Source: an uncultured Candidatus Binatia bacterium (GTDB lineage: Bacteria > Desulfobacterota > Binatia > UBA9968 > JAJDTQ01). From it: DNA of 64,000 nt. The position numbers were made by a program, and so were the translations under genes. The notes beneath the pieces are model-generated. The model made no database searches and had not been told where the DNA came from. It saw nothing but the letters and a program-made list of their open reading frames with translations. The stretch is taken from positions 549,560 to 613,559 of the forward strand of contig OZ253480.1 in the NCBI GenBank assembly GCA_965261895.1, written 5' to 3'. Shown here one piece after another: positions 1,591 to 58,194 of the stretch; the stretch's first letter is position 1; each line of letters starts with the position of its first letter.

Positions 1591-1775
1591 CTACAACTGC
1601 CACGCCCGAACGCAGCAAATGATCACAACGTCCTCAAGATTCGATTCGCGTCGATCCGGCTTGACAGGCGATCCCTTTCCGGCCAAGAAACAGTGGCCTG
1701 CAAGCTTCGGCCGCGGCGCGTCCCGCGCGCGATCCAGCGCCAACGAGCGTTGCCGCACGTGGACACGGAGGACAT

Positions 1776-2345
1776 ATGGCTATTATGGACGAAACCGACG
1801 ACCCGGGCTGCTGCTCCATCGACTACACTCACCACAAGGAGGTCTTCGAACGCCGCCAGAAAGCCTACCGGGAGGACCCCTCCAAGGCGGTGACGGTGCA
1901 CGAGGCTCAAATCCGGCTGGTCAACGACCACCTGAAGGAGGCCAGGACCTCCGAAGGCTACACCATCCTCTGCGACGAGCCGCCGTCACGCGGCGGCACC
2001 GGCAAGGGAGCAGCCCCGCTCCAGTACTTCGTCGCATCCATCGGCTTCTGAATGCTCAGCCAGGTGACGCAGTTGGCGTCATTCATGGATATCCGCATCG
2101 AGCGGGCCGAGATGTCGGTGCGGGGAGAGTTCGACCAGAAGGGCAAGTTCGGGTTGTCCGACGTGCCCTCCGCCTGCACCCGTCTGGTCTACCGGCTGGA
2201 CCTGCAAAGCCCGGACAGCCGGGACCGCATCGTCGAGTTCACCGAGGCCCTGGAACGGTCCTGCTACACCACCAACACCCTGCGGAACCCGGTGGAGGTG
2301 GTGCCGGAACTCACCCTCAACGGCGTCGACGTACCGCTGGGTTAG
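1776..2345 (+). CDS. OsmC/Ohr-family peroxiredoxin, candidate selenoprotein (in-frame TGA at 2049..2051 read as Sec)
   Basis: ORFs 1776..2051 and 2052..2345 lie in the same frame and are separated only by TGA. The joined product reads GTGKGAAPLQYFVASIGF-U-MLSQVTQLA, which aligns with the OsmC motif G.NPEEL..AAL.GC.S.AL; the TGA sits exactly at the peroxidatic Cys. A second Cys (SACTR) lies in the C-terminal half, as in OsmC. ATG at 1776. Confidence 0.6.
2060..2088 (+). ncRNA. SECIS-like stem-loop 9-37 nt downstream of the in-frame UGA
   Basis: ccagg-TGACGC-agttg-GCGTCA-ttcatgg. It has a perfect 6-bp upper stem with a 5-nt G/U-containing apical loop and a flanking partial lower stem. Position relative to UGA matches bacterial SECIS geometry. 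Confidence 0.4.
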
Positions 2346-2524: not shown

Positions 2525-3346
2525 TTACCCCTGCTCCAGCACCCACCGCGCCACTTCGTCGTGTCGCGCGAACCACACCCTGGAGAACCCCTTCATGTAC
2601 CGGAGAATCTCCGTCAGCGCGGACGCCATCATCGGCCGTCCGCCGAAATGGGCGTGGACGGTCAGATTGATCATCTCCGGCACGTCTGATCGGTAGAGGA
2701 AGTCGAAGGTGTCCTTATAGACGTTGAGGAAATCCCGCGGACTGCCCCGCATGACCCGGTTGTCCGCGAAATCGCTATGGGGGATGGCCACGATGTCTCC
2801 GGATTCGGTGGCCTTCGGGTAGGGAACGTCCGTGTCGTTGTAGTCGCCGTGCCAGACACAGCCCGCTTCCGCCAGAAACCCCGCGGTATGCTCCGTGGGC
2901 GTCGCCCTGGGGCTCAACCAGCCCACGGGCCTCGTTCCCACCGCGCCCTCGATGAGATCGAAGCAGCGCCCGATCACTTCCTTCTCTTCATCCGCGGAGA
3001 GGTCGGTGAGGAAAGTGTCCTGGGTGTACGAGTGGCCGGCCAGCTCGTGTCCGTTCTCGTGCAGGGCCTTGACCGCGTCCGGGAAAAGCTCCACCGAGCG
3101 GCCACTGACGCAGACCGTGGCGGGAATCTCGAACTCCCGGAAGATCTTCATGAACCGCCAGACCCCCGTGCGTCCGCCGTATTCCGACCACGACACCCCC
3201 AGCCGGTCCACCACGCCCGGCTTCAACGGTGAGGACATGGGCGAATAGGACGGCGCCTTTCCCGGAGACCAGGTCTCGAACATGGGGGTCACAAGGACCG
3301 CCACCTTGGCGTCATTGGGCCATTTCTCTATTGCTATTGCCGACAA
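2525..3346 (-). CDS. Polysaccharide deacetylase (NodB homology domain) family protein
   Basis: 273 aa with the HSYTQD (HxxH-like) motif and overall NodB/PuuE-like character. TTG start at 3346 with GGGGAG Shine-Dalgarno 4 nt upstream. Confidence 0.7.
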   Translation of the reverse strand: MSAIAIEKWPNDAKVAVLVTPMFETWSPGKAPSYSPMSSPLKPGVVDRLGVSWSEYGGRTGVWRFMKIFREFEIPATVCVSGRSVELFPDAVKALHENGHELAGHSYTQDTFLTDLSADEEKEVIGRCFDLIEGAVGTRPVGWLSPRATPTEHTAGFLAEAGCVWHGDYNDTDVPYPKATESGDIVAIPHSDFADNRVMRGSPRDFLNVYKDTFDFLYRSDVPEMINLTVHAHFGGRPMMASALTEILRYMKGFSRVWFARHDEVARWVLEQG

Positions 3347-4096: not shown

Positions 4097-5277
4097 GGAA
4101 GATCGCTCCAGAGATGAGGATATTTGAGCCCGGATCCGGTGATCATCAGAACCACGCGCTCCTCCCTGCCCACCTCGCCGCGCTCCAGCAGCCGCCGCAA
4201 CGCCACCAGGCACGCACCGGCCTCTGGCGCCACGAAGATCCCTTCGGCGGAACCGACTTCCCGCACGCTGTCCAGGATCTCGGCGTCGGACACGCTCACA
4301 GCGGTGCCGCCGCTCTGGCGCAGGATGCGCAGAATCATGAAATCGCCGATGACAACCGGCACACGCAGACCCGCGGCCACGGTGACCGGTTGCTTCACCG
4401 CCTCCGCCGTATCGGCCCCGGCCTCGAACGCGTTGACGATGGGCGCGCAGCCTTCGGCCTGGACCGAGACCATGCGCGGCCGCTTCGAATCGATCCAGCC
4501 CAGCTCTTCCATCTCATCGAAGGCCTTCCACATGCCGATCAAGCCCGTCCCGCCGCCGGTGGGATACACCAGCACGTCCGGCAGCGTCCAGTCCATCTGC
4601 TCGGCAAGCTCGTAGGCCATGGTCTTCTTGCCCTCGACCCGATAGGGCTCCTTCAGGGTCGATACGTCGAACCACCCCTCGCGTTCCTTCTTCTCCCCGA
4701 TGATGCGGCCGCAATCGTTGATGAAGCCGTCCACCAGCACCACCTGGGCGCCGTACTGCATGCATTCGACGACACTCACCCGGGAAACGTCCCGCGGCAT
4801 GTAAATGTGGGCTTCCAGGCCCGCTTTCGCCGCATAGGCGGCCAGCGCCCCGGAGGCATTTCCCGCCGAGGGAACCGCCAGGCGTTCCGCCCCCAGCTCC
4901 GCGGCCATGGATACCGCGGTGGTCATGCCGCGGGCCTTGAACGAACCGGTGGGATTGAGAGACTCGTCCTTGAGGTGGAGCCGGGACATACCCAGCCGCT
5001 CACCCAGTCGGCGCGCGTGGACCAGGGGCGTCCATCCCTCCCCCAGCGTGATGATCGAAGCGTCGTCAACCACCGGAAGCACTTCGCGGTAGCGCCACAA
5101 GCTCGCCACCCGCCCCCGCAGGCTGTCGCGGGTCAGCGTCTCGGCCGCCCGCGCCAAATCGTAGCGCACGAGCAGTGGCCGGCCGCATTCCCGGCACAGA
5201 TTGTGGAGGATCCCCCGTTCATGACGCGCGCCGCAACGCGAACATTCCAGATACGTGACGTACATATCGCACCCCAC
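4093..5277 (-). CDS. thrC: Threonine synthase (PLP fold-type II), with N-terminal CxxC...CxxC zinc ribbon
   Basis: HLKDESLNPTGSFKARG PLP-lysine motif and the GNASGALAAYAA and VYPTGGGTG motifs. Start is either GTG at 5277 or ATG at 5265. Confidence 0.85.
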   Translation of the reverse strand: MGCDMYVTYLECSRCGARHERGILHNLCRECGRPLLVRYDLARAAETLTRDSLRGRVASLWRYREVLPVVDDASIITLGEGWTPLVHARRLGERLGMSRLHLKDESLNPTGSFKARGMTTAVSMAAELGAERLAVPSAGNASGALAAYAAKAGLEAHIYMPRDVSRVSVVECMQYGAQVVLVDGFINDCGRIIGEKKEREGWFDVSTLKEPYRVEGKKTMAYELAEQMDWTLPDVLVYPTGGGTGLIGMWKAFDEMEELGWIDSKRPRMVSVQAEGCAPIVNAFEAGADTAEAVKQPVTVAAGLRVPVVIGDFMILRILRQSGGTAVSVSDAEILDSVREVGSAEGIFVAPEAGACLVALRRLLERGEVGREERVVLMITGSGLKYPHLWSDLP

Positions 5278-5289
5278 AGCTCTTCAGTC

Positions 5290-5430
5290 GCCTCGTTCCG
5301 TCCCAAATCCAGCCCCTCTCCCTCTGGGAGAGGGTGGCCTCGTTCCGTCCCAAATCCAACCCCTCTCCCTTTGGGAGAGGGTGGCCTCGTTCCGCCCCAA
5401 ATCCAGCCCCTCTCCCTCTGGGAGAGGGTG
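5290..5430. repeat. 3 x 47-bp tandem array of family-C hairpin repeat (gcctcgttccgtcccaaatccagcccctctccctctgggagagggtg)
   Basis: Three near-identical head-to-tail units at 5290-5336, 5337-5383 and 5384-5430. Each contains the palindrome CCCTCTCCCTCTGGGAGAGGG. They are followed by GGGTGAGGG x2 and an inverted partial copy at 5525-5556. Confidence 0.85.
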
Positions 5431-5599
5431 GCCGAAGGCTGGGTGAGGGCCGGGTGAGGGCGCCCCCAACAACCCTGCCTGCGTCATTCCGTGCCGTACC
5501 CGGCTGGGCAGCTCATTTGAGCGCCCTCACCCCAACCCTCTCCCAGAGGGAGAGGGAGTCGGAAGGTGTGTGTCTCACAAACAGTTGCCGGGATGCTGC

Positions 5600-6697
5600 T
5601 CACATCCGCGGGCTCCACACCCTGCCCGGCACGTAGATCCGGCCCTCAAACAGCTTCCGGGCGGTGCGGACCACGCCGGCCTTCTCTAGCGCGAAGTCAT
5701 CTCCGACCCCGCTCAGCTCGAACGCCACGATGATGGAACCGCTGGGGTGCTCGATCTCCACCAGCTCGGAGAACCCCCCTTTGGTTTCCGCAATACCGTC
5801 GGCCACGGTCCCGGGCACCAGGGCGCAGCTCCCGACGCAGATGGCGCCGGACACCGCGTGGGTGGAATGACAGTCGGTGGGCACGAAGTAGCGGGAGGTC
5901 AGCGCGCCGCCCCGGCGGGGCCGGGAAAGAATCCCGAACTTGGGAATGACCTTGCCGCGGACGTCGCCCAGCCCCATCTTCTCGCCGGCGACCACCCGGA
6001 CCGCTTCCAGCTTCTCCAGCAGCTCCCGGTTGGCATCCAGCTCGGCCTTGCTCTCGTCACCCCGGACGCCCATGCTCTCGGCCGTCGTCAGCACCATCGG
6101 CATGGCCACGTCCACGCAGCTCACCTCGACGCCCTCGATGACTTCCTTGCGTTTTCCCGTCGGGAACAACGCCCCGGTCTTGGAGCCGATGACCTCCATG
6201 AAGTTCAGCAGAATCGGCGCCGCCTTGCCGGGGACCCCGTCAATGACAGTGTCGCCGTCGTATTCGACGTAGCCGTCCGGGGTCTCCACCACTGCCTCGA
6301 TGAGGGAATCGGTATTGACGTTCCGAATATGAATCACGGTCCTGGGATCGTCCGAGGGCACCAGCCCGCGATCGATGGCGAAGGGGCCCACGCCCGCCAG
6401 CATGTTGCCGCAGGTGGGGCTGTAGTCCACGAACGCCCGGTCCACCGAGACCTGGGCGAAGAGGTAGTCCACGTCCGCCCAGGGGTGGTCCGACGGCGAA
6501 ACGATGGCGACCTTGCTGGTGAGGGTGGTGGCGCCGCCGACGCCGTCGATCTGGCGGTCATCGGGGGACCCCATGGCCGCCAAGAGGACCCGGTCGCGCG
6601 TCGCGTCGTCGGCCGGCAGCTCGCCGGCCAGGAAGTACGGCCCCCGCGAGGTGCCGCCGCGCATCATGGTACACGAGATCGCGGTCTGGTTTGCCAT
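5600..6697 (-). CDS. PrpF/AcnD-accessory (2-methylaconitate isomerase / 4-oxalomesaconate tautomerase) family protein
   Basis: MRGGTSRGPYF N-terminal hallmark and the later CHSTHAVSGAIC motif of the PrpF fold. Confidence 0.8.
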   Translation of the reverse strand: MANQTAISCTMMRGGTSRGPYFLAGELPADDATRDRVLLAAMGSPDDRQIDGVGGATTLTSKVAIVSPSDHPWADVDYLFAQVSVDRAFVDYSPTCGNMLAGVGPFAIDRGLVPSDDPRTVIHIRNVNTDSLIEAVVETPDGYVEYDGDTVIDGVPGKAAPILLNFMEVIGSKTGALFPTGKRKEVIEGVEVSCVDVAMPMVLTTAESMGVRGDESKAELDANRELLEKLEAVRVVAGEKMGLGDVRGKVIPKFGILSRPRRGGALTSRYFVPTDCHSTHAVSGAICVGSCALVPGTVADGIAETKGGFSELVEIEHPSGSIIVAFELSGVGDDFALEKAGVVRTARKLFEGRIYVPGRVWSPRM

Positions 6698-21661: not shown

Positions 21662-22500
21662 GGGCAGGCTTCCTTCCACACCGCGGCAAGGGCGCGGCGG
21701 CCCAGAACTCTCACCAGATGGCGCTTGTAGTCCGCCGAGCCGCGCAGGTCCGGGATGGGATCGATCTCCTCGGCAGCCCGGTCGGCCATGTCCTCCAGCC
21801 CCGCCTCCGTGGGATCGTTCTGGCACAGCAGCAACGGCCGCGGCCCCACCGCCCCCACCGCAAGACGCGCCTCCACCGGACGGTCCCCCTCCAGCCGCAC
21901 CAGCGCGGTGATCCCCGCGCACGGCCGTTCCTCGGAGGAGCCGGTGGTGAACTTGAGGTAGCTTGCCACCCGCCGTCCCTGCGCCGGCGGCACCGTCACC
22001 GCCGTGACCAACTCACCCGGTTCCAGCGCCGTCTCGTAAAGGCCCATCAGAAAGTCCGCGAGCTTCAGGGTGCGCGTGCCCGTTGTGCCCGTCAACTCCA
22101 CTGCCGCATCGAGGGCCACCAGCACCCCCGGCGGATCCGACTGATGGTCCCCGTGGGCCAGATTGCCGCCGATGGTGGCCAGATGGCGGATACGGATGTT
22201 CGCCACCTCGTGACAGGCCTGGGCCAGCACCGGAAGATGCTCCCGCACCACCGGCGAGGTCTCCACCTCGTGGATGGTGGCCAAGGCCTCGATGCGCGTG
22301 GCCCCGGCAGCATCCCGGGTGATGGCGTTGGCTCCCTCCAGCTTCTTGAGGTTCACCAAGGTCCGGGGCCGCAGAAGCCCCTGCTTGACCAGAATGAGGA
22401 GCGCGGTCCCGCCACTGACCGGCCGCACCTCGTCGCCGGCGTCGAGCATCCGGCAGGCTTCGGTAATCGTCTTGGGTTCCAGGAGATCGAAGTTGCGCAT
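21658..22500 (-). CDS. coxM: Mo-hydroxylase FAD-binding medium subunit
   Basis: 280 aa with the FAD_binding_5 pattern (VSGGTALL, ATIGGNLAHGD). ATGA overlap with coxL. Confidence 0.85.
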   Translation of the reverse strand: MRNFDLLEPKTITEACRMLDAGDEVRPVSGGTALLILVKQGLLRPRTLVNLKKLEGANAITRDAAGATRIEALATIHEVETSPVVREHLPVLAQACHEVANIRIRHLATIGGNLAHGDHQSDPPGVLVALDAAVELTGTTGTRTLKLADFLMGLYETALEPGELVTAVTVPPAQGRRVASYLKFTTGSSEERPCAGITALVRLEGDRPVEARLAVGAVGPRPLLLCQNDPTEAGLEDMADRAAEEIDPIPDLRGSADYKRHLVRVLGRRALAAVWKEACP

Positions 22501-22707
22501 GGGATGTGGACGTAACAGCCGTTTGAGGCGTCAGGGTTGGGCGTCCCTACAGGCGCCGGTTAAACCATCGTGGTGAAGGTCACCTTTCACGGTAGCGTGC
22601 ATAACACCGCGCGGTGGCTATTGCAACGAAAGAGTCATTTGAGGCTTATCAACTCCGAGATTGCAAATCGGCGGAAAGTATGGCTTGGCTAAAGGGGAGG
22701 TACTGGC

Positions 22708-22935
22708 ATGGTCCGGAGCAAAACGGCGATTCACAGGGACCCCGATATTCTCGGCGGAACGACCGTGTTCGTTGGGACGAGAGTCCCTCTCCAGGCTCTC
22801 CTCGACTACTTGAAGGCGGATCGGCCACTTGCAGACTTCCTGGACGACTATCCTACCGTGACTCACGACCAGGCAATAGCTGTACTGGAGCAGGCGAAGG
22901 ACCTGCTGGTGTCTGATGCGCTTGCTACTCGATGA
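22708..22935 (+). CDS. DUF433-domain protein (putative antitoxin)
   Basis: DPDILGGTTVFVGTRVPLQALLDYL is the DUF433 signature. Confidence 0.7.
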   Translation: MVRSKTAIHRDPDILGGTTVFVGTRVPLQALLDYLKADRPLADFLDDYPTVTHDQAIAVLEQAKDLLVSDALATR

Positions 22936-23152
22936 GTGCCTCCCGCGGCGGCTGAGGCGCGAGCCTGTAGGCTACGACGTACAGACAGTACCCGAGATGG
23001 GATGGGCCGGCCTCAAAAACGGCCAGCTTCTGCACTTGGCTGCCTCTCACTTCGACGTTTTCCTTACCGTGGACGGGAGCATCGAACATCAACAATGTCT
23101 CGACGCTCGGGATCTGCGTAGTCACCCTCCGAGCCAAGAGCAACGATATTGA
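22916..23152 (+). CDS. DUF5615 (Mut7-C/PIN-like) protein, putative toxin partner of DUF433
   Basis: MRLLLDECLPRRL...GYDV is the DUF5615 N-terminal hallmark. 20-nt overlap with the DUF433 gene. Confidence 0.6.
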   Translation: MRLLLDECLPRRLRREPVGYDVQTVPEMGWAGLKNGQLLHLAASHFDVFLTVDGSIEHQQCLDARDLRSHPPSQEQRY

Positions 23153-23337
23153 AGCGCTCTTACCTCTGATGCCCGCAGCGTCTCCCGAACCAAACTCGTC
23201 TTGCCCATCCGACGTTGCGCGGTCAGCAGCGTATGGGTCCCCTCCCGGATTCGCTCCGTGAGAGCTCTGATCTCGGCGTCTCGATCAAAGAACCGATCCC
23301 CCTCGACCCAGTTGGATCCGGCTTTCCTGAGTGTCAT
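23122..23337 (-). pseudogene. N-terminal fragment of an AAA/Arch-type ATPase (truncated)
   Basis: FFDRDAEIRAL...LLTAQRRMGKTSL is Walker-A-containing N-terminus. The frame terminates after ~70 aa, whereas family members are 350-450 aa. Confidence 0.35.
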
Positions 23338-23506
23338 GACCCAATCTCCAACGAAATGGTTGCCAACGAAATGGTTGCCAACCATTTAGTGGAAAATAGG
23401 ACGAGTGTTCAAGGGATTACCAGCAGCTTTGTTGCCAACTGAAACGTTGGCAGTCTAGTGGTTCAGTCAACCATTAACCGCCGGAACGCGATGAATTCAT
23501 CCGGAG

Positions 23507-24277
23507 TCAGATCCACGTCTGAGGATGCTCTTCGAGAATGCGTTCACTCAGGGGAGCGAAGTAGCCCCGGCTCGTGGTGAAGAATCGAAGCAATCGGCCA
23601 TCCGCGTCCGGCGTCAAAACGGAGCGTATCCAAACATTCATTTGGTCCGGATCGTCAATGTCTCGCGACTGTTCGACGAGGGCATTCCGCCATTTCCTCC
23701 TCGCCAACCGGAGGCGTTCGACGTTCAGGTTAAGGAGTTTGAGGGTGCGGCTCATCCGCTCAGATGGAAACCCCGCAGATTCGCAGGCGCCCTCATCCGT
23801 TTCGATCAATCCGTCGTCACCCACCCTCGTGAGCGACGGCAAATCTGGTAGTGTCCGTGGGTCAACGAAAGCGGAATCGTTCCGATTCCCCTTTGCCTGG
23901 CCACAACTCATGTTGTCCGCTATGGGTTCCCGAAAATGACCCTCACCCTCGTCTTCCTCCTCGTCAAGGGCTCGCACCGTACCGCCCATACAACAGGCGA
24001 CCATGTTGGTAATGTCGAACGCCCTGTCGTCGGCGCTCCTCGGGATCACATGCTCAACCTGACGGCGCGATCTGTTCAGACGACCCGGTTCGTAGATGTC
24101 GATTTCGCAATAGGTGCAAAGTCCGTGTTGGTTTCGGGCCAGAGCATCCTGGAGTTCGCGGCGCTCAGCACGCCATTTGCGAGAGTGGAGTCTACTCCAG
24201 GTCGCATTGTCGCCCTCGGCACAGCGAAATTCGGCAAGGCCGGGTGTGACGTCCTTCAATTCCCTGATGCGCTTCAT
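23507..24277 (-). CDS. ptuB: Septu PtuB-like HNH endonuclease (TIGR02646-like)
   Basis: 256 aa. HNH core CTYCE...VEHVIPRS plus CCMGG. ATGA overlap with ptuA. Confidence 0.7.
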   Translation of the reverse strand: MKRIRELKDVTPGLAEFRCAEGDNATWSRLHSRKWRAERRELQDALARNQHGLCTYCEIDIYEPGRLNRSRRQVEHVIPRSADDRAFDITNMVACCMGGTVRALDEEEDEGEGHFREPIADNMSCGQAKGNRNDSAFVDPRTLPDLPSLTRVGDDGLIETDEGACESAGFPSERMSRTLKLLNLNVERLRLARRKWRNALVEQSRDIDDPDQMNVWIRSVLTPDADGRLLRFFTTSRGYFAPLSERILEEHPQTWI

Positions 24278-25551
24278 TTCGACTCCGCCATCCGCTTGAA
24301 CAACTTGCGTTGCTTGATTTCAAGGTCGGCACTGGCAAGGGCGGGGTCCTCGGGAGACAGATCATCGAGAGTCTGCCGTAAGGCCCGAGCTTCTTCGGAT
24401 TCACCCCGACCCTCGCTCACCACACGCCCGTACCGGTCCAATGCCTCGGTGAAGCGGTTGTCTGGCCGCTCCTTCACGCCCATCACCACCGATAGCACGT
24501 CACCCGCTTCGGCGCCGTAGGTCCACCCACTTGGAGCCCCGGCAACGATGCGGCCATCCTTCCGGGCGAGTTCCACAATGTGTTTCGGCTCCACGGTGGT
24601 CAGCACCTGTGGGCTGTGGGTAGAAACAATGAACTGTGCGTTCGGAAACGTCCGCATGAGGTCGTCGAGGATCCGCTGCTGCCACGACGGATGCAGGTGC
24701 AACTCGATCTCGTCGATCAGGACAACCGCTTCGGAGCGGAGCGGGTAGTCAAGGTGCGGGTTCCCCTGAGCCATTCGCCACGCCAGATCGGCCGTGAGAG
24801 CAAGCACCGCGCGATAACCGCCGCTCAACTGGTCGAGTGCCAGCTTCTCGCTGTTCTGTCCCGTATCGAGGTTCACCACGAACCGAAGGGGATTGACCTC
24901 GATATGAGGATCGGACACATCGTCAAGCATGGACGAGATTGCATCACGGACAGTGGACAGATCCCTCAGTCGATAATCGAAGTCACGCCGCCTGTTCTGT
25001 TCTCTCAACTCTTCGTTTTCCTTGAAGTAAAACCACTGAAAGAGCGTCCGGAAATTCGTTCGGGCGGAAAGTGCCCCCTCCAACGCAGCAAACCGCAGAA
25101 ACTCCTTCTTGAACCCGCGTCTTCGCTGCGGCAAATCAAACACGACTCGGTCTGTATCGTAGAAGGCGACAATAGGCAGGTCGATCGGCGGTCCTTCACG
25201 GTCGGCGTCAACCAGCTTGCCGGTCTGCTCCCTCAACCACTCCAATCCACGCACTCCCGCCAGCGCCCTTCCCTGCTTCGTTCGAATCCGTCTCCAGGCA
25301 TGTCCATCGATTGGTGTTAGCGCGACCCGTACCGATTGCGCACCCTCACGGAGATCCGTTTTGCGGAAGTTTATCCCCGAGACACCGGGGAGTCGGGTAG
25401 GAATAGCGCCGAGCCCCACCGCGACCGCGCTCAACACGCTGGTCTTGCCGTGCGCGTTGGCGCCGTGCAGTACAGTCAACTGTGGATCAAGCGATAGGGT
25501 GAGCTTCTCGATGGCGCGAAAATTCTCGATCTCGACGGCTTTCAGCTTCAT
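24274..25551 (-). CDS. ptuA: Septu PtuA-like ABC-type (AAA_15/AAA_21) ATPase
   Basis: Walker A GANAHGKTSVL, ABC signature LSGGYRAVLAL, Walker B VVLIDEIELHLHP, H-loop STHSP. GGAGGGA SD. Confidence 0.75.
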   Translation of the reverse strand: MKLKAVEIENFRAIEKLTLSLDPQLTVLHGANAHGKTSVLSAVAVGLGAIPTRLPGVSGINFRKTDLREGAQSVRVALTPIDGHAWRRIRTKQGRALAGVRGLEWLREQTGKLVDADREGPPIDLPIVAFYDTDRVVFDLPQRRRGFKKEFLRFAALEGALSARTNFRTLFQWFYFKENEELREQNRRRDFDYRLRDLSTVRDAISSMLDDVSDPHIEVNPLRFVVNLDTGQNSEKLALDQLSGGYRAVLALTADLAWRMAQGNPHLDYPLRSEAVVLIDEIELHLHPSWQQRILDDLMRTFPNAQFIVSTHSPQVLTTVEPKHIVELARKDGRIVAGAPSGWTYGAEAGDVLSVVMGVKERPDNRFTEALDRYGRVVSEGRGESEEARALRQTLDDLSPEDPALASADLEIKQRKLFKRMAESK

Positions 25552-25624
25552 GATCCCATCCCTCCAACTCGTTGGACAGGCAGGCGGCAGAGTCTAATGA
25601 GTATTCCGTTGGTAGGTCATGCCG

Positions 25625-25790
25625 CTAGTGTGGTGTCTCACAAATACGCTTATGAAGATGCGAGGGCATTTTGGTTGTCGGCAAGGCGCGATGACGAGCA
25701 GTGGCCGTTACCACGCGAGGAAGAGCAACGCAGCCGACGGCCAAAAGGACCCGCAGATTCATAAGCGTATTTGTGAGACACCACACTAGT
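25625..25790. mobile_element. MITE-like element (family D) with 32-bp perfect terminal inverted repeats
   Basis: ctagtgtggtgtctcacaaatacgcttatgaa ... ttcataagcgtatttgtgagacaccacactag flank a ~100-bp core. The core and left arm recur at 53245-53314; a partial arm recurs at 5565-5584. Confidence 0.6.
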
Positions 25791-25826
25791 ATCCTGTTTA
25801 TCACGTCCTGCTGGTTTGGTTGAGCC

Positions 25827-26153
25827 GTGGTACCCATTGTAACCCGTTACGTGACATGTAACACTGACTGTGCCGTGATCAAGGGCTTCAGGCACAAAGG
25901 GCTACAAACATTCTTCGAGACCGGCAGCAAGAAAGGCATCCAGCCCAAGCATGCCAACCACCTCCGGGATATCTTGGCCACATTGGATTCGGCCACCTCT
26001 CCCAAGGAGATACGAGCGCCGAACTTCCGTTTGCATCTCTCGGAGCCTCACCGCGCCAATGTCTGGTCCGTGTACGTCGCCAAGAACTGGAGTGTGGACT
26101 TTCGTTTCATCGGTGGGCATGCCGAAGCCGTCGACTATGTGGAGCACCACTAG
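25827..26153 (+). CDS. higB: Type II toxin HigB (RelE/ParE superfamily, killer protein)
   Basis: IKGFRHKGLQTFFETGSKKGIQPKHANHLRDILATLD is typical of HigB. Alternative GTG start at 25875. Confidence 0.75.
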   Translation: MVPIVTRYVTCNTDCAVIKGFRHKGLQTFFETGSKKGIQPKHANHLRDILATLDSATSPKEIRAPNFRLHLSEPHRANVWSVYVAKNWSVDFRFIGGHAEAVDYVEHH

Positions 26154-26202
26154 TCCCTGACCCGGCCTTTGGTCCCTGCTACGCCGCTTTCAGGAGACAG
26201 CC

Positions 26203-26490
26203 ATGAGAATGCACAACCCGCCTCATCCCGGCGGTGTACTGTTGAGACAGTGGATTTCACCTTTGGGTATCTCCATTACCCAGGCCGCCAAGCACCTCGG
26301 CATTTCCCGCAAGGCGCTTTCCGAGCTGGTTAACGAGCACACCGGGATCAGTCCCGAGATGGCAGTGAGGCTCTCCATAGCTCTGGGCACCAGTTCCGAG
26401 CTGTGGATGAACATGCAGTCCAGTTATGACTTGTGGCACGCCGAACGGCGCAGGAAGGAGCTGCGAGTCACGTCCATCGTCGCGGCGTAG
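26203..26490 (+). CDS. higA: Type II antitoxin HigA (XRE-family HTH)
   Basis: [40 protein letters not shown] is the HigA HTH. Confidence 0.8.
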
Positions 26491-26494
26491 GGTC

Positions 26495-26686
26495 TCACCG
26501 CTTCGGCTCCGTCAGCAGGAACCGCAGTGCCGTCAGCACCCGGCGCGGGTGCTTGCGGTGCATCGCCATGCCGAGCCAGTAAGCGGCCTCCCCACGTCCC
26601 ATGGCCTCGATGCCCTCGGCTACGGCACGCATGTTATCGCAGCTTTGTATGGGGGCGAGGGTGCGGAACTTAACAAAACGACTCAT
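26495..26686 (-). CDS. Hypothetical small protein
   Basis: 63 aa, G/C-rich third codon positions, divergent from the DUF1778 gene. No family recognised. Confidence 0.3.
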   Translation of the reverse strand: MSRFVKFRTLAPIQSCDNMRAVAEGIEAMGRGEAAYWLGMAMHRKHPRRVLTALRFLLTEPKR

Positions 26687-26744
26687 TTTAGTCCTTTATG
26701 TCATTTGGGCTAACTTCACGTAGTCCCATCGGAGGAACTCCGTC

Positions 26745-27011
26745 ATGAGTCGCTTATCCATAGAGTTGACCCCGGAGCAACACGAGCAACTCAGAACCAT
26801 CGCCGCACTGCATGGCCAGACCCTCAAGGACTACATCCTTGAGCGGACCCTGCCACACGTTCCGCAAAAGGAATCCCTTTCCGGAGACGGAACCCTGCTA
26901 CGGTTGGAAGCGTTTCTCAAGCCTCGGATAGCGCAAGCCACGCGCGGAGAAGTCGTCGAGGATTCCGTAAAGCAGATATTCGCCGCCGTCCGGAAAACTC
27001 CCAACGGATGA
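26745..27011 (+). CDS. RHH antitoxin, DUF1778/TacA-like (orphan, no GNAT toxin adjacent)
   Basis: MSRLSIELTPEQHEQLRTIAALHGQTLKDYILERTL is the DUF1778 hallmark. Confidence 0.55.
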   Translation: MSRLSIELTPEQHEQLRTIAALHGQTLKDYILERTLPHVPQKESLSGDGTLLRLEAFLKPRIAQATRGEVVEDSVKQIFAAVRKTPNG

Positions 27012-53341: not shown

Positions 53342-53437
53342 GTCCCCGTTTTGCCGGCGCGGCCGCAGTGATCCGGTTGGCCGGCGCAGTTTGACTGCCT
53401 GAAGCGGAGGTGGATATATAGCCGCTTGGAGGACTTC

Positions 53438-54973
53438 ATGCGTTACGGATTTGTCATCGACCAAAACCGCTGCATCGGCTGTCACGCCTGTACCGTGGCC
53501 TGCAAGGACGAGCACGACGTGCCCCTGGGGGTCAACCGGACCTGGGTCAAGTACATCGAGAAGGGTGCGTTCCCCGCCACCAGCCGCCATTTTGCGGTGC
53601 TCCGGTGCAACCATTGCGACGACGCGCCGTGCATCGAGATCTGTCCCACGGTGGCGCTCTACCGGAGCCCCAACGGCATCGTCGACTTCGACAACGAACG
53701 ATGCATCGGGTGCAAGTCGTGCATGCAGGCGTGCCCCTACGACGCCCTGTACATCGACCCCGACAACAATACCGCCGCCAAGTGCAACTTCTGCGCGCAC
53801 CGGGTGGAGCTCGGGCTGCAGCCGGCCTGCGAGGTGGTGTGTCCCACCCAGGCCATTATGTCCGGCGACCTCGACGACCCGGACAGCCGCATCAGCCGCA
53901 CCGTGGCCACCCAAAAGGTCTCCGTCAGAAAGCCCCACAAGGGCACCAACCCCAAGCTTTTCTACGTCGGCGTCGAGGAAGACGTGCTGCAGCCAACCAT
54001 GACCGAAACCTCCGACACCCACTTGTGGGCTGACAAGTACCCCGGCGAGGATCTCTACGCCCTCTCCGCTTCCAGACACGGGGGCCCGGTTCCGGGCGGC
54101 GCGCGCGAGGTCTACGACGTGCCGCACCCGAGGCCCTGGGGGCCGAAGATCGCCGCCTATCTCTGGACCAAGTCCATCGGCTCCGGGGTGCTGCTGGTGG
54201 CGGCCTTGCTCATGATGCTCGGGGCGAGCCGGGGCGGGCCGTTGCTGAACATCGTGAGCCCGATTCTGGCGCTGGTCTTTACCGGGCTCACCACCGGCAT
54301 CCTGATCTACGATCTCAAGCGGCCCGACCGCTTCTACTACCTGCTGACCAAGCCCAACCTGCGCTCATGGCTCGTGCTGGGCGGTTACATCCTGATGGCC
54401 TACTCCCTCGCCAGCGTCGTCTGGCTTGCCTACGGGACCGGGACCGGCAGCGTGCCTGTGTGGGTTATCGCCGCCTGCGGCATCCTCGGCATCGGCTCCG
54501 CGGGCTATTCCGCGTTTCTGTTCGCCCAGGCCAAGGGCCGCGACCTGTGGCAGAGCCCGCTCTTTCTCTGGCATCTGCTGGCCCAGGCCGTCGCCGCCGG
54601 GGCCGCCACCCTGATCCTGTTCGGCCTCGTGACGGGCCTCGATGGCCAGGTCATGGCGACCATCGGCACCATCCTCATGGTTTCACTGATCGTCACCGCG
54701 GGTCTGGTGCTGGGAGAGGTGGCGCTGACACCCATCAGCGAGGACGTGCGGCGCGCCACCGAGCTGCTCACCTGCGGTGCGCTCCGGGAGAAGTTCTGGG
54801 GCCTGTTCATGGCCGTGGGCATCCTTCTGCCGGTGATCTTTCTGGTGTGGGCCGGGGCACAGGAACAGGCCTCCTGGTTGCTGCACCCCCTGTCCGCGTT
54901 GCTGGCCCTCATCGGACTCTGGGCGTTCGAGTCCTTGTGGGTCGAGGCCGGGCAAGCCGTGCCGCTGAGCTAG
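53438..54973 (+). CDS. Fusion protein: 4x[4Fe-4S] ferredoxin (DmsB/PsrB-like) + NrfD/PsrC-like integral membrane domain
   Basis: MRYGFVIDQNRCIGCHACTVAC plus three further CxxCxxCxxxCP motifs, then ~8 predicted TM helices. GGAGGA SD. No twin-arginine motif. Confidence 0.8.
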   Translation: MRYGFVIDQNRCIGCHACTVACKDEHDVPLGVNRTWVKYIEKGAFPATSRHFAVLRCNHCDDAPCIEICPTVALYRSPNGIVDFDNERCIGCKSCMQACPYDALYIDPDNNTAAKCNFCAHRVELGLQPACEVVCPTQAIMSGDLDDPDSRISRTVATQKVSVRKPHKGTNPKLFYVGVEEDVLQPTMTETSDTHLWADKYPGEDLYALSASRHGGPVPGGAREVYDVPHPRPWGPKIAAYLWTKSIGSGVLLVAALLMMLGASRGGPLLNIVSPILALVFTGLTTGILIYDLKRPDRFYYLLTKPNLRSWLVLGGYILMAYSLASVVWLAYGTGTGSVPVWVIAACGILGIGSAGYSAFLFAQAKGRDLWQSPLFLWHLLAQAVAAGAATLILFGLVTGLDGQVMATIGTILMVSLIVTAGLVLGEVALTPISEDVRRATELLTCGALREKFWGLFMAVGILLPVIFLVWAGAQEQASWLLHPLSALLALIGLWAFESLWVEAGQAVPLS

Positions 54974-55023
54974 TGTCGCGTCGCCGGCGCTCACGGCCGG
55001 CCATTTGGCGCCATGACGGACGC

Positions 55024-55044
55024 GGGCGGGTTTGAAACCCGCCC
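55024..55044. repeat. Family-A hairpin repeat
   Basis: Lies between the ferredoxin-NrfD gene and the molybdopterin gene. Confidence 0.9.
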
Positions 55045-55087
55045 CTACGACAGCCACGCCCGATGCAGCAAGAAGGGACCCGTCGCA

Positions 55088-57913
<2,826 letters not shown>

Positions 57914-57950: not shown

Positions 57951-58194
57951 CAGCGTCCTTCGACTTCGCTCGTCCTGAGCGTAGCGAGGCAGCCGAGCGA
58001 AGTCGAAGGGCTCAGGACGAACGGATAAGACATCTCATCCCCGTTCGTCCTGAGCCCTTCGACAGAGCTCAGGACAGGCGTAGAGAGTCCTGAGCCTGTC
58101 GAAGGACTCAGGACGAACGGTTGGGAAAACCCCTATCCCCGTTCGTCCTGAGCGTAGCGAGGCAGCCGAGCGAAGTCGAAGGACGCTGCTTTGA
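57951..58194. repeat. Family-B compound palindromic repeat, copy B5
   Basis: Nested gctcaggacgaacgg / ccgttcgtcctgagc stems and cgaagtcgaagg arms, about 245 bp. Confidence 0.8.

Follow-up and report, generated by a model that had tools for sequence, protein, structure and literature searches.

A conserved in-frame UGA followed by a SECIS-type hairpin marks a probable OsmC-like selenoprotein gene in Candidatus Binatia

Two adjoining open reading frames (ORFs) lie near the start of a 64-kb stretch of Candidatus Binatia DNA, the whole of which is referred to here as the window. Both are on the plus strand and both read in one frame. The first extends from an ATG at 1776 to a TGA at 2049–2051 and contains 91 codons; the second extends from an ATG at 2052 to a TAG at 2343–2345 and contains 97 codons, and the TGA alone separates them. 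This arrangement had been described in a sequence-only reading of the window, and both the sequence and the ORF list agree with it. A Shine-Dalgarno motif, GGAGG, can be read off the sequence at 1767–1771 (+), 4 nt 5' of the ATG at 1776, and inspection of the sequence upstream of the ATG at 2052 revealed no comparable motif. Read without interruption, the two ORFs make up one coding sequence of 189 codons plus TAG (1776–2345, +) in which the TGA is codon 92. The prediction that gene callers would yield two fragments here is borne out by public gene predictions for relatives, which contain fragments only, of 91 and 97–110 amino acids.

The split gene is monocistronic on the plus strand. Its neighbours are a divergent UbiD-family gene (61–1410, −) and a convergent polysaccharide deacetylase gene (2525–3346, −). 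This order is kept in close relatives and is not found in more distant orthologues, so that no functional linkage can be inferred from it. Scans for consensus promoters and terminators around the gene found nothing. At one related locus, L001, a classical Cys-type OsmC gene (NPEDLLVAALSACH...AHDMCF; L001:9183–9653, −) is situated between UbiD and the split gene and is divergent from the latter. It is absent from the window, in which the intergenic region between UbiD and the split gene measures 365 nt. Several other close relatives may also carry a Cys-type OsmC gene, given their similar spacing between UbiD and the split gene.

Other features were noticed elsewhere in the window. A nested palindromic element of ~147 nt (2358–2504) lies directly 3' of the stop codon of the split gene, with arms at 2358–2378/2484–2504 and 2408–2422/2438–2452. 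It is absent at the corresponding site in L001 and in a second relative, L002, and another near-copy of its core, TTCGACAAGCTCAGGAC, lies at 58087–58103 (−). The element resembles repeats of REP or MITE type. In an intergenic section at 5250–5640, repeat units yield strings of the SPSPSGRGWP, LSLWERVA and TLSQRERG type when translated in several frames; this is apparently a short-repeat element, either dispersed or tandem. A low-GC islet at 22500–27000 (58–59% compared to ~65% elsewhere in the window) carries a Septu-type defence pair, with PtuA at 24274–25551 (−; E = 4e-120) and PtuB at 23507–24277 (−; E = 6e-52), together with a HigB-like toxin gene (25827–26153, +) and an HTH antitoxin gene (26203–26490, +).

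The joined 189-residue product, searched with the TGA-encoded residue (U) modelled as Cys, belongs to the OsmC family, as had been proposed from the sequence. It matches the NCBIfam model NF041052, “OsmC-related (seleno)protein”, at 135.7 bits (E = 1.1e-39; curated cutoff 95), with product residues 43–183 on model positions 5–144 of 144, and it matches Pfam OsmC (PF02566) at 52.1 bits compared to a gathering threshold of 27.5 (E = 9.5e-14; residues 74–175). All 31 aligned homologues match NF041052. The profile of these 31 homologues matches solved OsmC-like, OsmC and Ohr structures, most strongly two OsmC-like proteins that are uncharacterised (2opl, E = 8.5e-26; 3cje, E = 1.2e-24) and not OsmC or Ohr proper. 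With the C-terminal half as query, exhaustive HMMER searching returned 92 relatives. About half of them are ORFs of 95–110 residues that start exactly at query residue 1 (MLSQLTRYAS..., MLTQVTRAAS...), and these ORFs are the second halves of likewise split genes; the remaining relatives have 165–220 residues and span the TGA position. A word-indexed homologue search returned 3 close fragments only.

The column occupied by the TGA contains Cys in 29 of the 31 full-length homologues and Gly in the other two. The catalytic Cys position is the classic site of exchange between selenocysteine (Sec) and Cys. In a profile alignment, GKGAAPLQYFVASIGF[U]MLSQ matches EKGTNPEELIGAAHAAC59FSMA of E. coli OsmC, which places position 92 on the peroxidatic Cys59 and Cys163 on the resolving Cys125. 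The comparison is a remote one (hhalign probability 49%, E = 1.7e-4). Both results uphold the earlier proposal that the stop codon at 2049–2051 (+) falls on the peroxidatic cysteine of the OsmC active-site block. The proposal made for the second cysteine has to be changed. The sequence-only reading had chosen the cysteine of SACTR as the resolving residue, but the column of this cysteine, Cys134, is not conserved, with Cys in only a handful of the 31 homologues. The sole invariant cysteine is Cys163 (ERSCYTTNT; codon 2262–2264, +), which occurs in all 31 and is the conserved second cysteine of resolving type.

Conservation of the TGA was followed through 34 orthologous loci, 32 from species-representative Candidatus Binatia MAGs obtained in one genome scan and two from metagenome contigs. 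The MAGs are labelled Candidatus Binatia or have the older labels ‘Deltaproteobacteria’, ‘Syntrophobacterales’ and ‘Thermodesulfobacteriota’, and their loci are 58–99% identical in the amino acids of the C-terminal half. An in-frame TGA is present at the identical codon at every one of the 34 loci, and the frame upstream of it encodes a conserved N-terminal half. A pseudogene, that is, an OsmC-like gene killed by a nonsense mutation at its Cys codon, would need only one base change (TGC or TGT to TGA) and would appear to gene callers as two fragments, but it does not fit a TGA that persists in all orthologues down to 58% identity. Nor does it fit the purifying selection, which is equally strong on both halves (dN/dS against the window of 0.06–0.22 in each). 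Of the 88 sites that vary among three close sequences, 64 are third codon positions, and this bias, taken with the dN/dS values, indicates that both sides of the TGA are coding. None of the 34 orthologous copies contains a frameshift or an extra stop, and a sense codon combined with a frameshift, which the sequence-only reading had named as the sign of a true pseudogene, was found in none of the related genomes. Spread of a dead copy through one contaminating sequence is contradicted by the assemblies, which differ at many synonymous sites. The probability of a pseudogene is practically negligible.

More distant sequences follow the same pattern. In five of five distant split metagenomic homologues for which DNA was available (L035, L036, L037, L041, L042), the TGA is at the same codon and the N-terminal half is homologous. 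Two distant metagenome contigs have, by their ORF calls, abutting ORFs of ~81–83 and ~98–100 residues with the same split. An adjoining second ORF pair is present on the same two contigs (80–85 and 111–116 residues, 3–12 nt apart), one larger ORF of which has a weak OsmC match. The adjoining pairs may be tandem copies that arose by local duplication of the split gene.

A further alternative is that the halves are two small proteins, produced by termination and reinitiation at UGA-AUG and assembled as two chains into a split OsmC domain. The TGAATG junction of the window and of its close relatives is typical of translational coupling. However, at 12 of the 34 loci, each from a different orthologous species (L021–L030, L032, L034), the codon that follows the TGA is a Leu codon (CTN, as CTG, CTC or other) and no start codon, so that the second half cannot be an independent ORF there. 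The ATG at 2052 also lacks a preceding Shine-Dalgarno sequence, and a split at this point, inside the active-site helix, would remove the one residue for which 29 of 31 homologues have Cys. Reinitiation, moreover, leaves unexplained the invariant synonymous sites of the hairpin that is described next. Two separate chains are therefore extremely unlikely, and a single chain that is continuous across the UGA is the preferred reading.

Shortly after the UGA, and still within the coding sequence, lies a hairpin of bacterial SECIS type (2060–2088, +). Its core stem pairs 2065–2070 with 2076–2081 (TGACGC-AGTTG-GCGTCA, 2065–2081) around an apical loop AGUUG at 2071–2075, and a lower closure is formed by CCA at 2060–2062 with UGG at 2086–2088. 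The first base of the core stem is 14 nt after the UGA, and 19 nt lie between the UGA and the loop. A SECIS-like stem-loop about 14 nt after the UGA was part of the sequence-only reading, and its position was confirmed; folding further places it within the published constraints for bacterial SECIS elements. The 29-nt hairpin has a minimum free energy (MFE) of −11.7 kcal/mol (z = −3.5), and 1 of 200 shuffled sequences was equally stable; a longer segment of 71 nt folds less strikingly (z = −1.98). The bSECIS criteria in a 2026 catalogue of prokaryotic selenoproteins (PMC13188914, Fig. 2 legend) ask for an upper stem of 4–16 bp that carries an apical loop of 3–9 nt, for G as the first or second base of the loop (the next base being G or U in most cases), for 16–37 nt between UGA and loop, and for an MFE of at most −7.5 kcal/mol. 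The present hairpin conforms to all four: its loop of 5 nt has G at position 2 and then U, its stem has 2 G-U pairs beside 6 Watson-Crick pairs, and its spacing and MFE lie within the limits. Like the E. coli fdhF-type SECIS, it lies inside the reading frame shortly 3' of the UGA, has a small apical loop with G-U and keeps a UGA distance within the 16–37 nt consensus. Its stem sequence is unrelated to that of fdhF, however, no bulged U was identified in the upper stem, and SelB binding is predicted here. A scan of the whole window against Rfam found no family at gathering thresholds, and a permissive scan of 1700–2500 gave only chance-level matches (E of at least 1). To our knowledge, Rfam has no general model for bacterial SECIS elements.

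Selection on the hairpin can be separated from selection on the protein. The core GACGC/GCGUC is invariant across all Binatia orthologues. Across the 34 distinct orthologous sequences, 46 codon columns are conserved four-fold sites, with a mean third-base entropy of 1.18 bits, and the third base is invariant in only two of them. Both belong to codons of the stem, ACG (Thr) at +6 and GCG (Ala) at +9, and this confinement of invariant four-fold sites to the stem shows selection that acts on the RNA and not on the protein. In a comparison of three close sequences, the longest stretch free of substitutions is 44 nt long (2046–2089) and extends from one codon 5' of the UGA through the 3' end of the hairpin. 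Covariation support for the hairpin is modest. Within the Binatia set covariation is uninformative, as four of seven tested pairs never vary. When distant members are added, compensatory changes appear in two stem pairs (A-U to G-C and C-G to A-U), 93.6% of cells are paired, and the observed score is reached by 1 of 500 shuffles; in this set, three of the six core pairs show no variation and 5 of 13 sequences lack the outermost pair. One distant split homologue (L042) keeps a hairpin with a loop GGUU that is one base out of register. A hairpin at this place is not exclusive to Sec forms, since the Cys-type homologue P0026 (L039:1720–2274) has one, GCGCG-CUU-CGCGC, in the same register after its UGC codon. 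Of three Cys-type homologues, this is the one with a hairpin at that register; it could be the relic of a SECIS from before a Sec-to-Cys conversion, or a product of chance.

Continuous translation across the UGA does not by itself imply selenium, because near-cognate suppression or a lineage-specific reassignment could insert a standard amino acid (Trp, Cys or Gly) at this codon. Leaky UGA readthrough occurs in bacteria, and the Sec machinery is not seen in the window: Pfam scans of ~40 long ORFs found no SelA, SelB or SelD, and ARAGORN found no tRNA genes, tRNA-Sec included, in the window or in the 34 related loci (~20 kb each). Reassignment conflicts with the Pfam-confirmed genes in the window, most of which end in TGA, and from this it follows that the genetic code is standard here and UGA is not reassigned. 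Other in-frame TGAs of the window with coding-like GC3 on both sides proved to be only antisense shadows of real genes, and no further recoded gene was found there. Insertion of any standard amino acid is at odds with a UGA that occupies the catalytic Cys column, with a conserved SECIS-type hairpin at the canonical distance that has constrained synonymous sites, and with curation of the family as a (seleno)protein (NF041052; PMC1088965). We regard readthrough with a standard amino acid as very unlikely. In another part of the window, a gene (53426–54973, +) whose product is a fusion of Fe-S and NrfD-like membrane protein is followed by a molybdopterin oxidoreductase gene (55013–57913, +) that encodes 966 residues in an ORF without in-frame TGA. 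This class of oxidoreductase often contains Sec in other organisms.

Taken as a whole, these results make us highly confident that 1776–2345 is one gene for a 189-residue OsmC-like redox protein, dependent on thiol and selenol groups, in which UGA codon 92 is decoded as Sec by means of the SECIS hairpin. The candidate selenoprotein of the sequence-only reading is strongly supported by protein family, the Sec/Cys column, conservation of the TGA and the hairpin. The gene is an ordinary member of the OsmC-like selenoprotein family that has been known since 2005, when it was described from the Sargasso Sea selenoproteome (COG1765, motif UxxT; Zhang, Fomenko & Gladyshev 2005; PMC1088965, Table 3), and that is included in the 2026 catalogue (PMC13188914). 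It shares with this family and with NF041052 the domain, Sec at the position of the first Cys and a score above the cutoff, as well as a SECIS that closely follows the UGA and has G in its small apical loop. Sec and Cys forms coexist within the family, as they do here. The differences are few. The window has the motif U-M-L-S (UxxS) compared to the published UxxT, and U-M-L-T is found in many other split members; the host is a member of the soil and sediment lineage Candidatus Binatia and not marine plankton; and the Binatia clade has an N-terminal extension, relative to NF041052, that includes a conserved vicinal Cys-Cys.

OsmC and Ohr have an established two-Cys peroxidase chemistry based on a peroxidatic and a resolving Cys. 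The present protein has the fold family (PF02566) and the two redox positions in common with E. coli OsmC and bacterial Ohr, and because these positions align with Cys59 and Cys125 of OsmC, a peroxidatic-plus-resolving mechanism is expected. It differs from them in that the peroxidatic residue would be Sec and not Cys, and the similarity is remote. By analogy with these hydroperoxide reductases the protein is most likely a hydroperoxide reductase itself, an activity that is predicted for the present subfamily from likeness. The hairpin at 2060–2088 is expected to act as a bacterial SECIS during translation: SelB, loaded with Sec-tRNA(Sec), would bind the hairpin at its apical part (the AGUUG loop starts 19 nt past the UGA), and Sec would be supplied at the A-site UGA in place of termination. 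In the finished enzyme, attack on a hydroperoxide would leave Sec92 as a selenenic acid, with which Cys163 would then form a selenenylsulfide; reduction of this Sec92-Cys163 bond by a cellular thiol reductant would regenerate the enzyme.

The reductant invites speculation about the N-terminus. Two adjacent cysteines, Cys12 and Cys13 (codons 1809–1814, +), form a motif [G/S]CC[S/T]I[D/N]Y that is conserved in the orthologues: it is present in the window and in every orthologue with a recovered N-terminus (L023 is cut short; L032 has CCSINY). The pair lies outside the NF041052 model, which matches residues 43–183, and is shared with two distant homologues of Cys type, P0056 (GCCNIDW) and P0077 (TCCVIDY). 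It is conceivable, if rather improbable, that the Binatia clade represents a distinct subtype in which Cys12-Cys13 serves as a built-in redox relay or metal site that recycles the Sec92-Cys163 selenenylsulfide. OsmC and Ohr use lipoyl or thioredoxin reductants, and an enzyme of such a subtype would be independent of them.

Family, Sec position and SECIS type have all been described before, and knowledge of selenoproteins is unchanged by this gene. The practical consequence is for annotation: the locus should be entered as a single 189-codon coding sequence with a Sec translation exception at 2049–2051. The wider consequence is for the host. Candidatus Binatia is a widespread uncultured lineage of soils and sediments, and literature searches that combined Binatia with selenium or selenocysteine returned nothing relevant. 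If the proposed decoding is true, Binatia would be a Sec-using lineage, of which the literature searched contains no report. Retention of the recoded gene in 32 species-representative genomes is indirect evidence for selenocysteine use by Candidatus Binatia.
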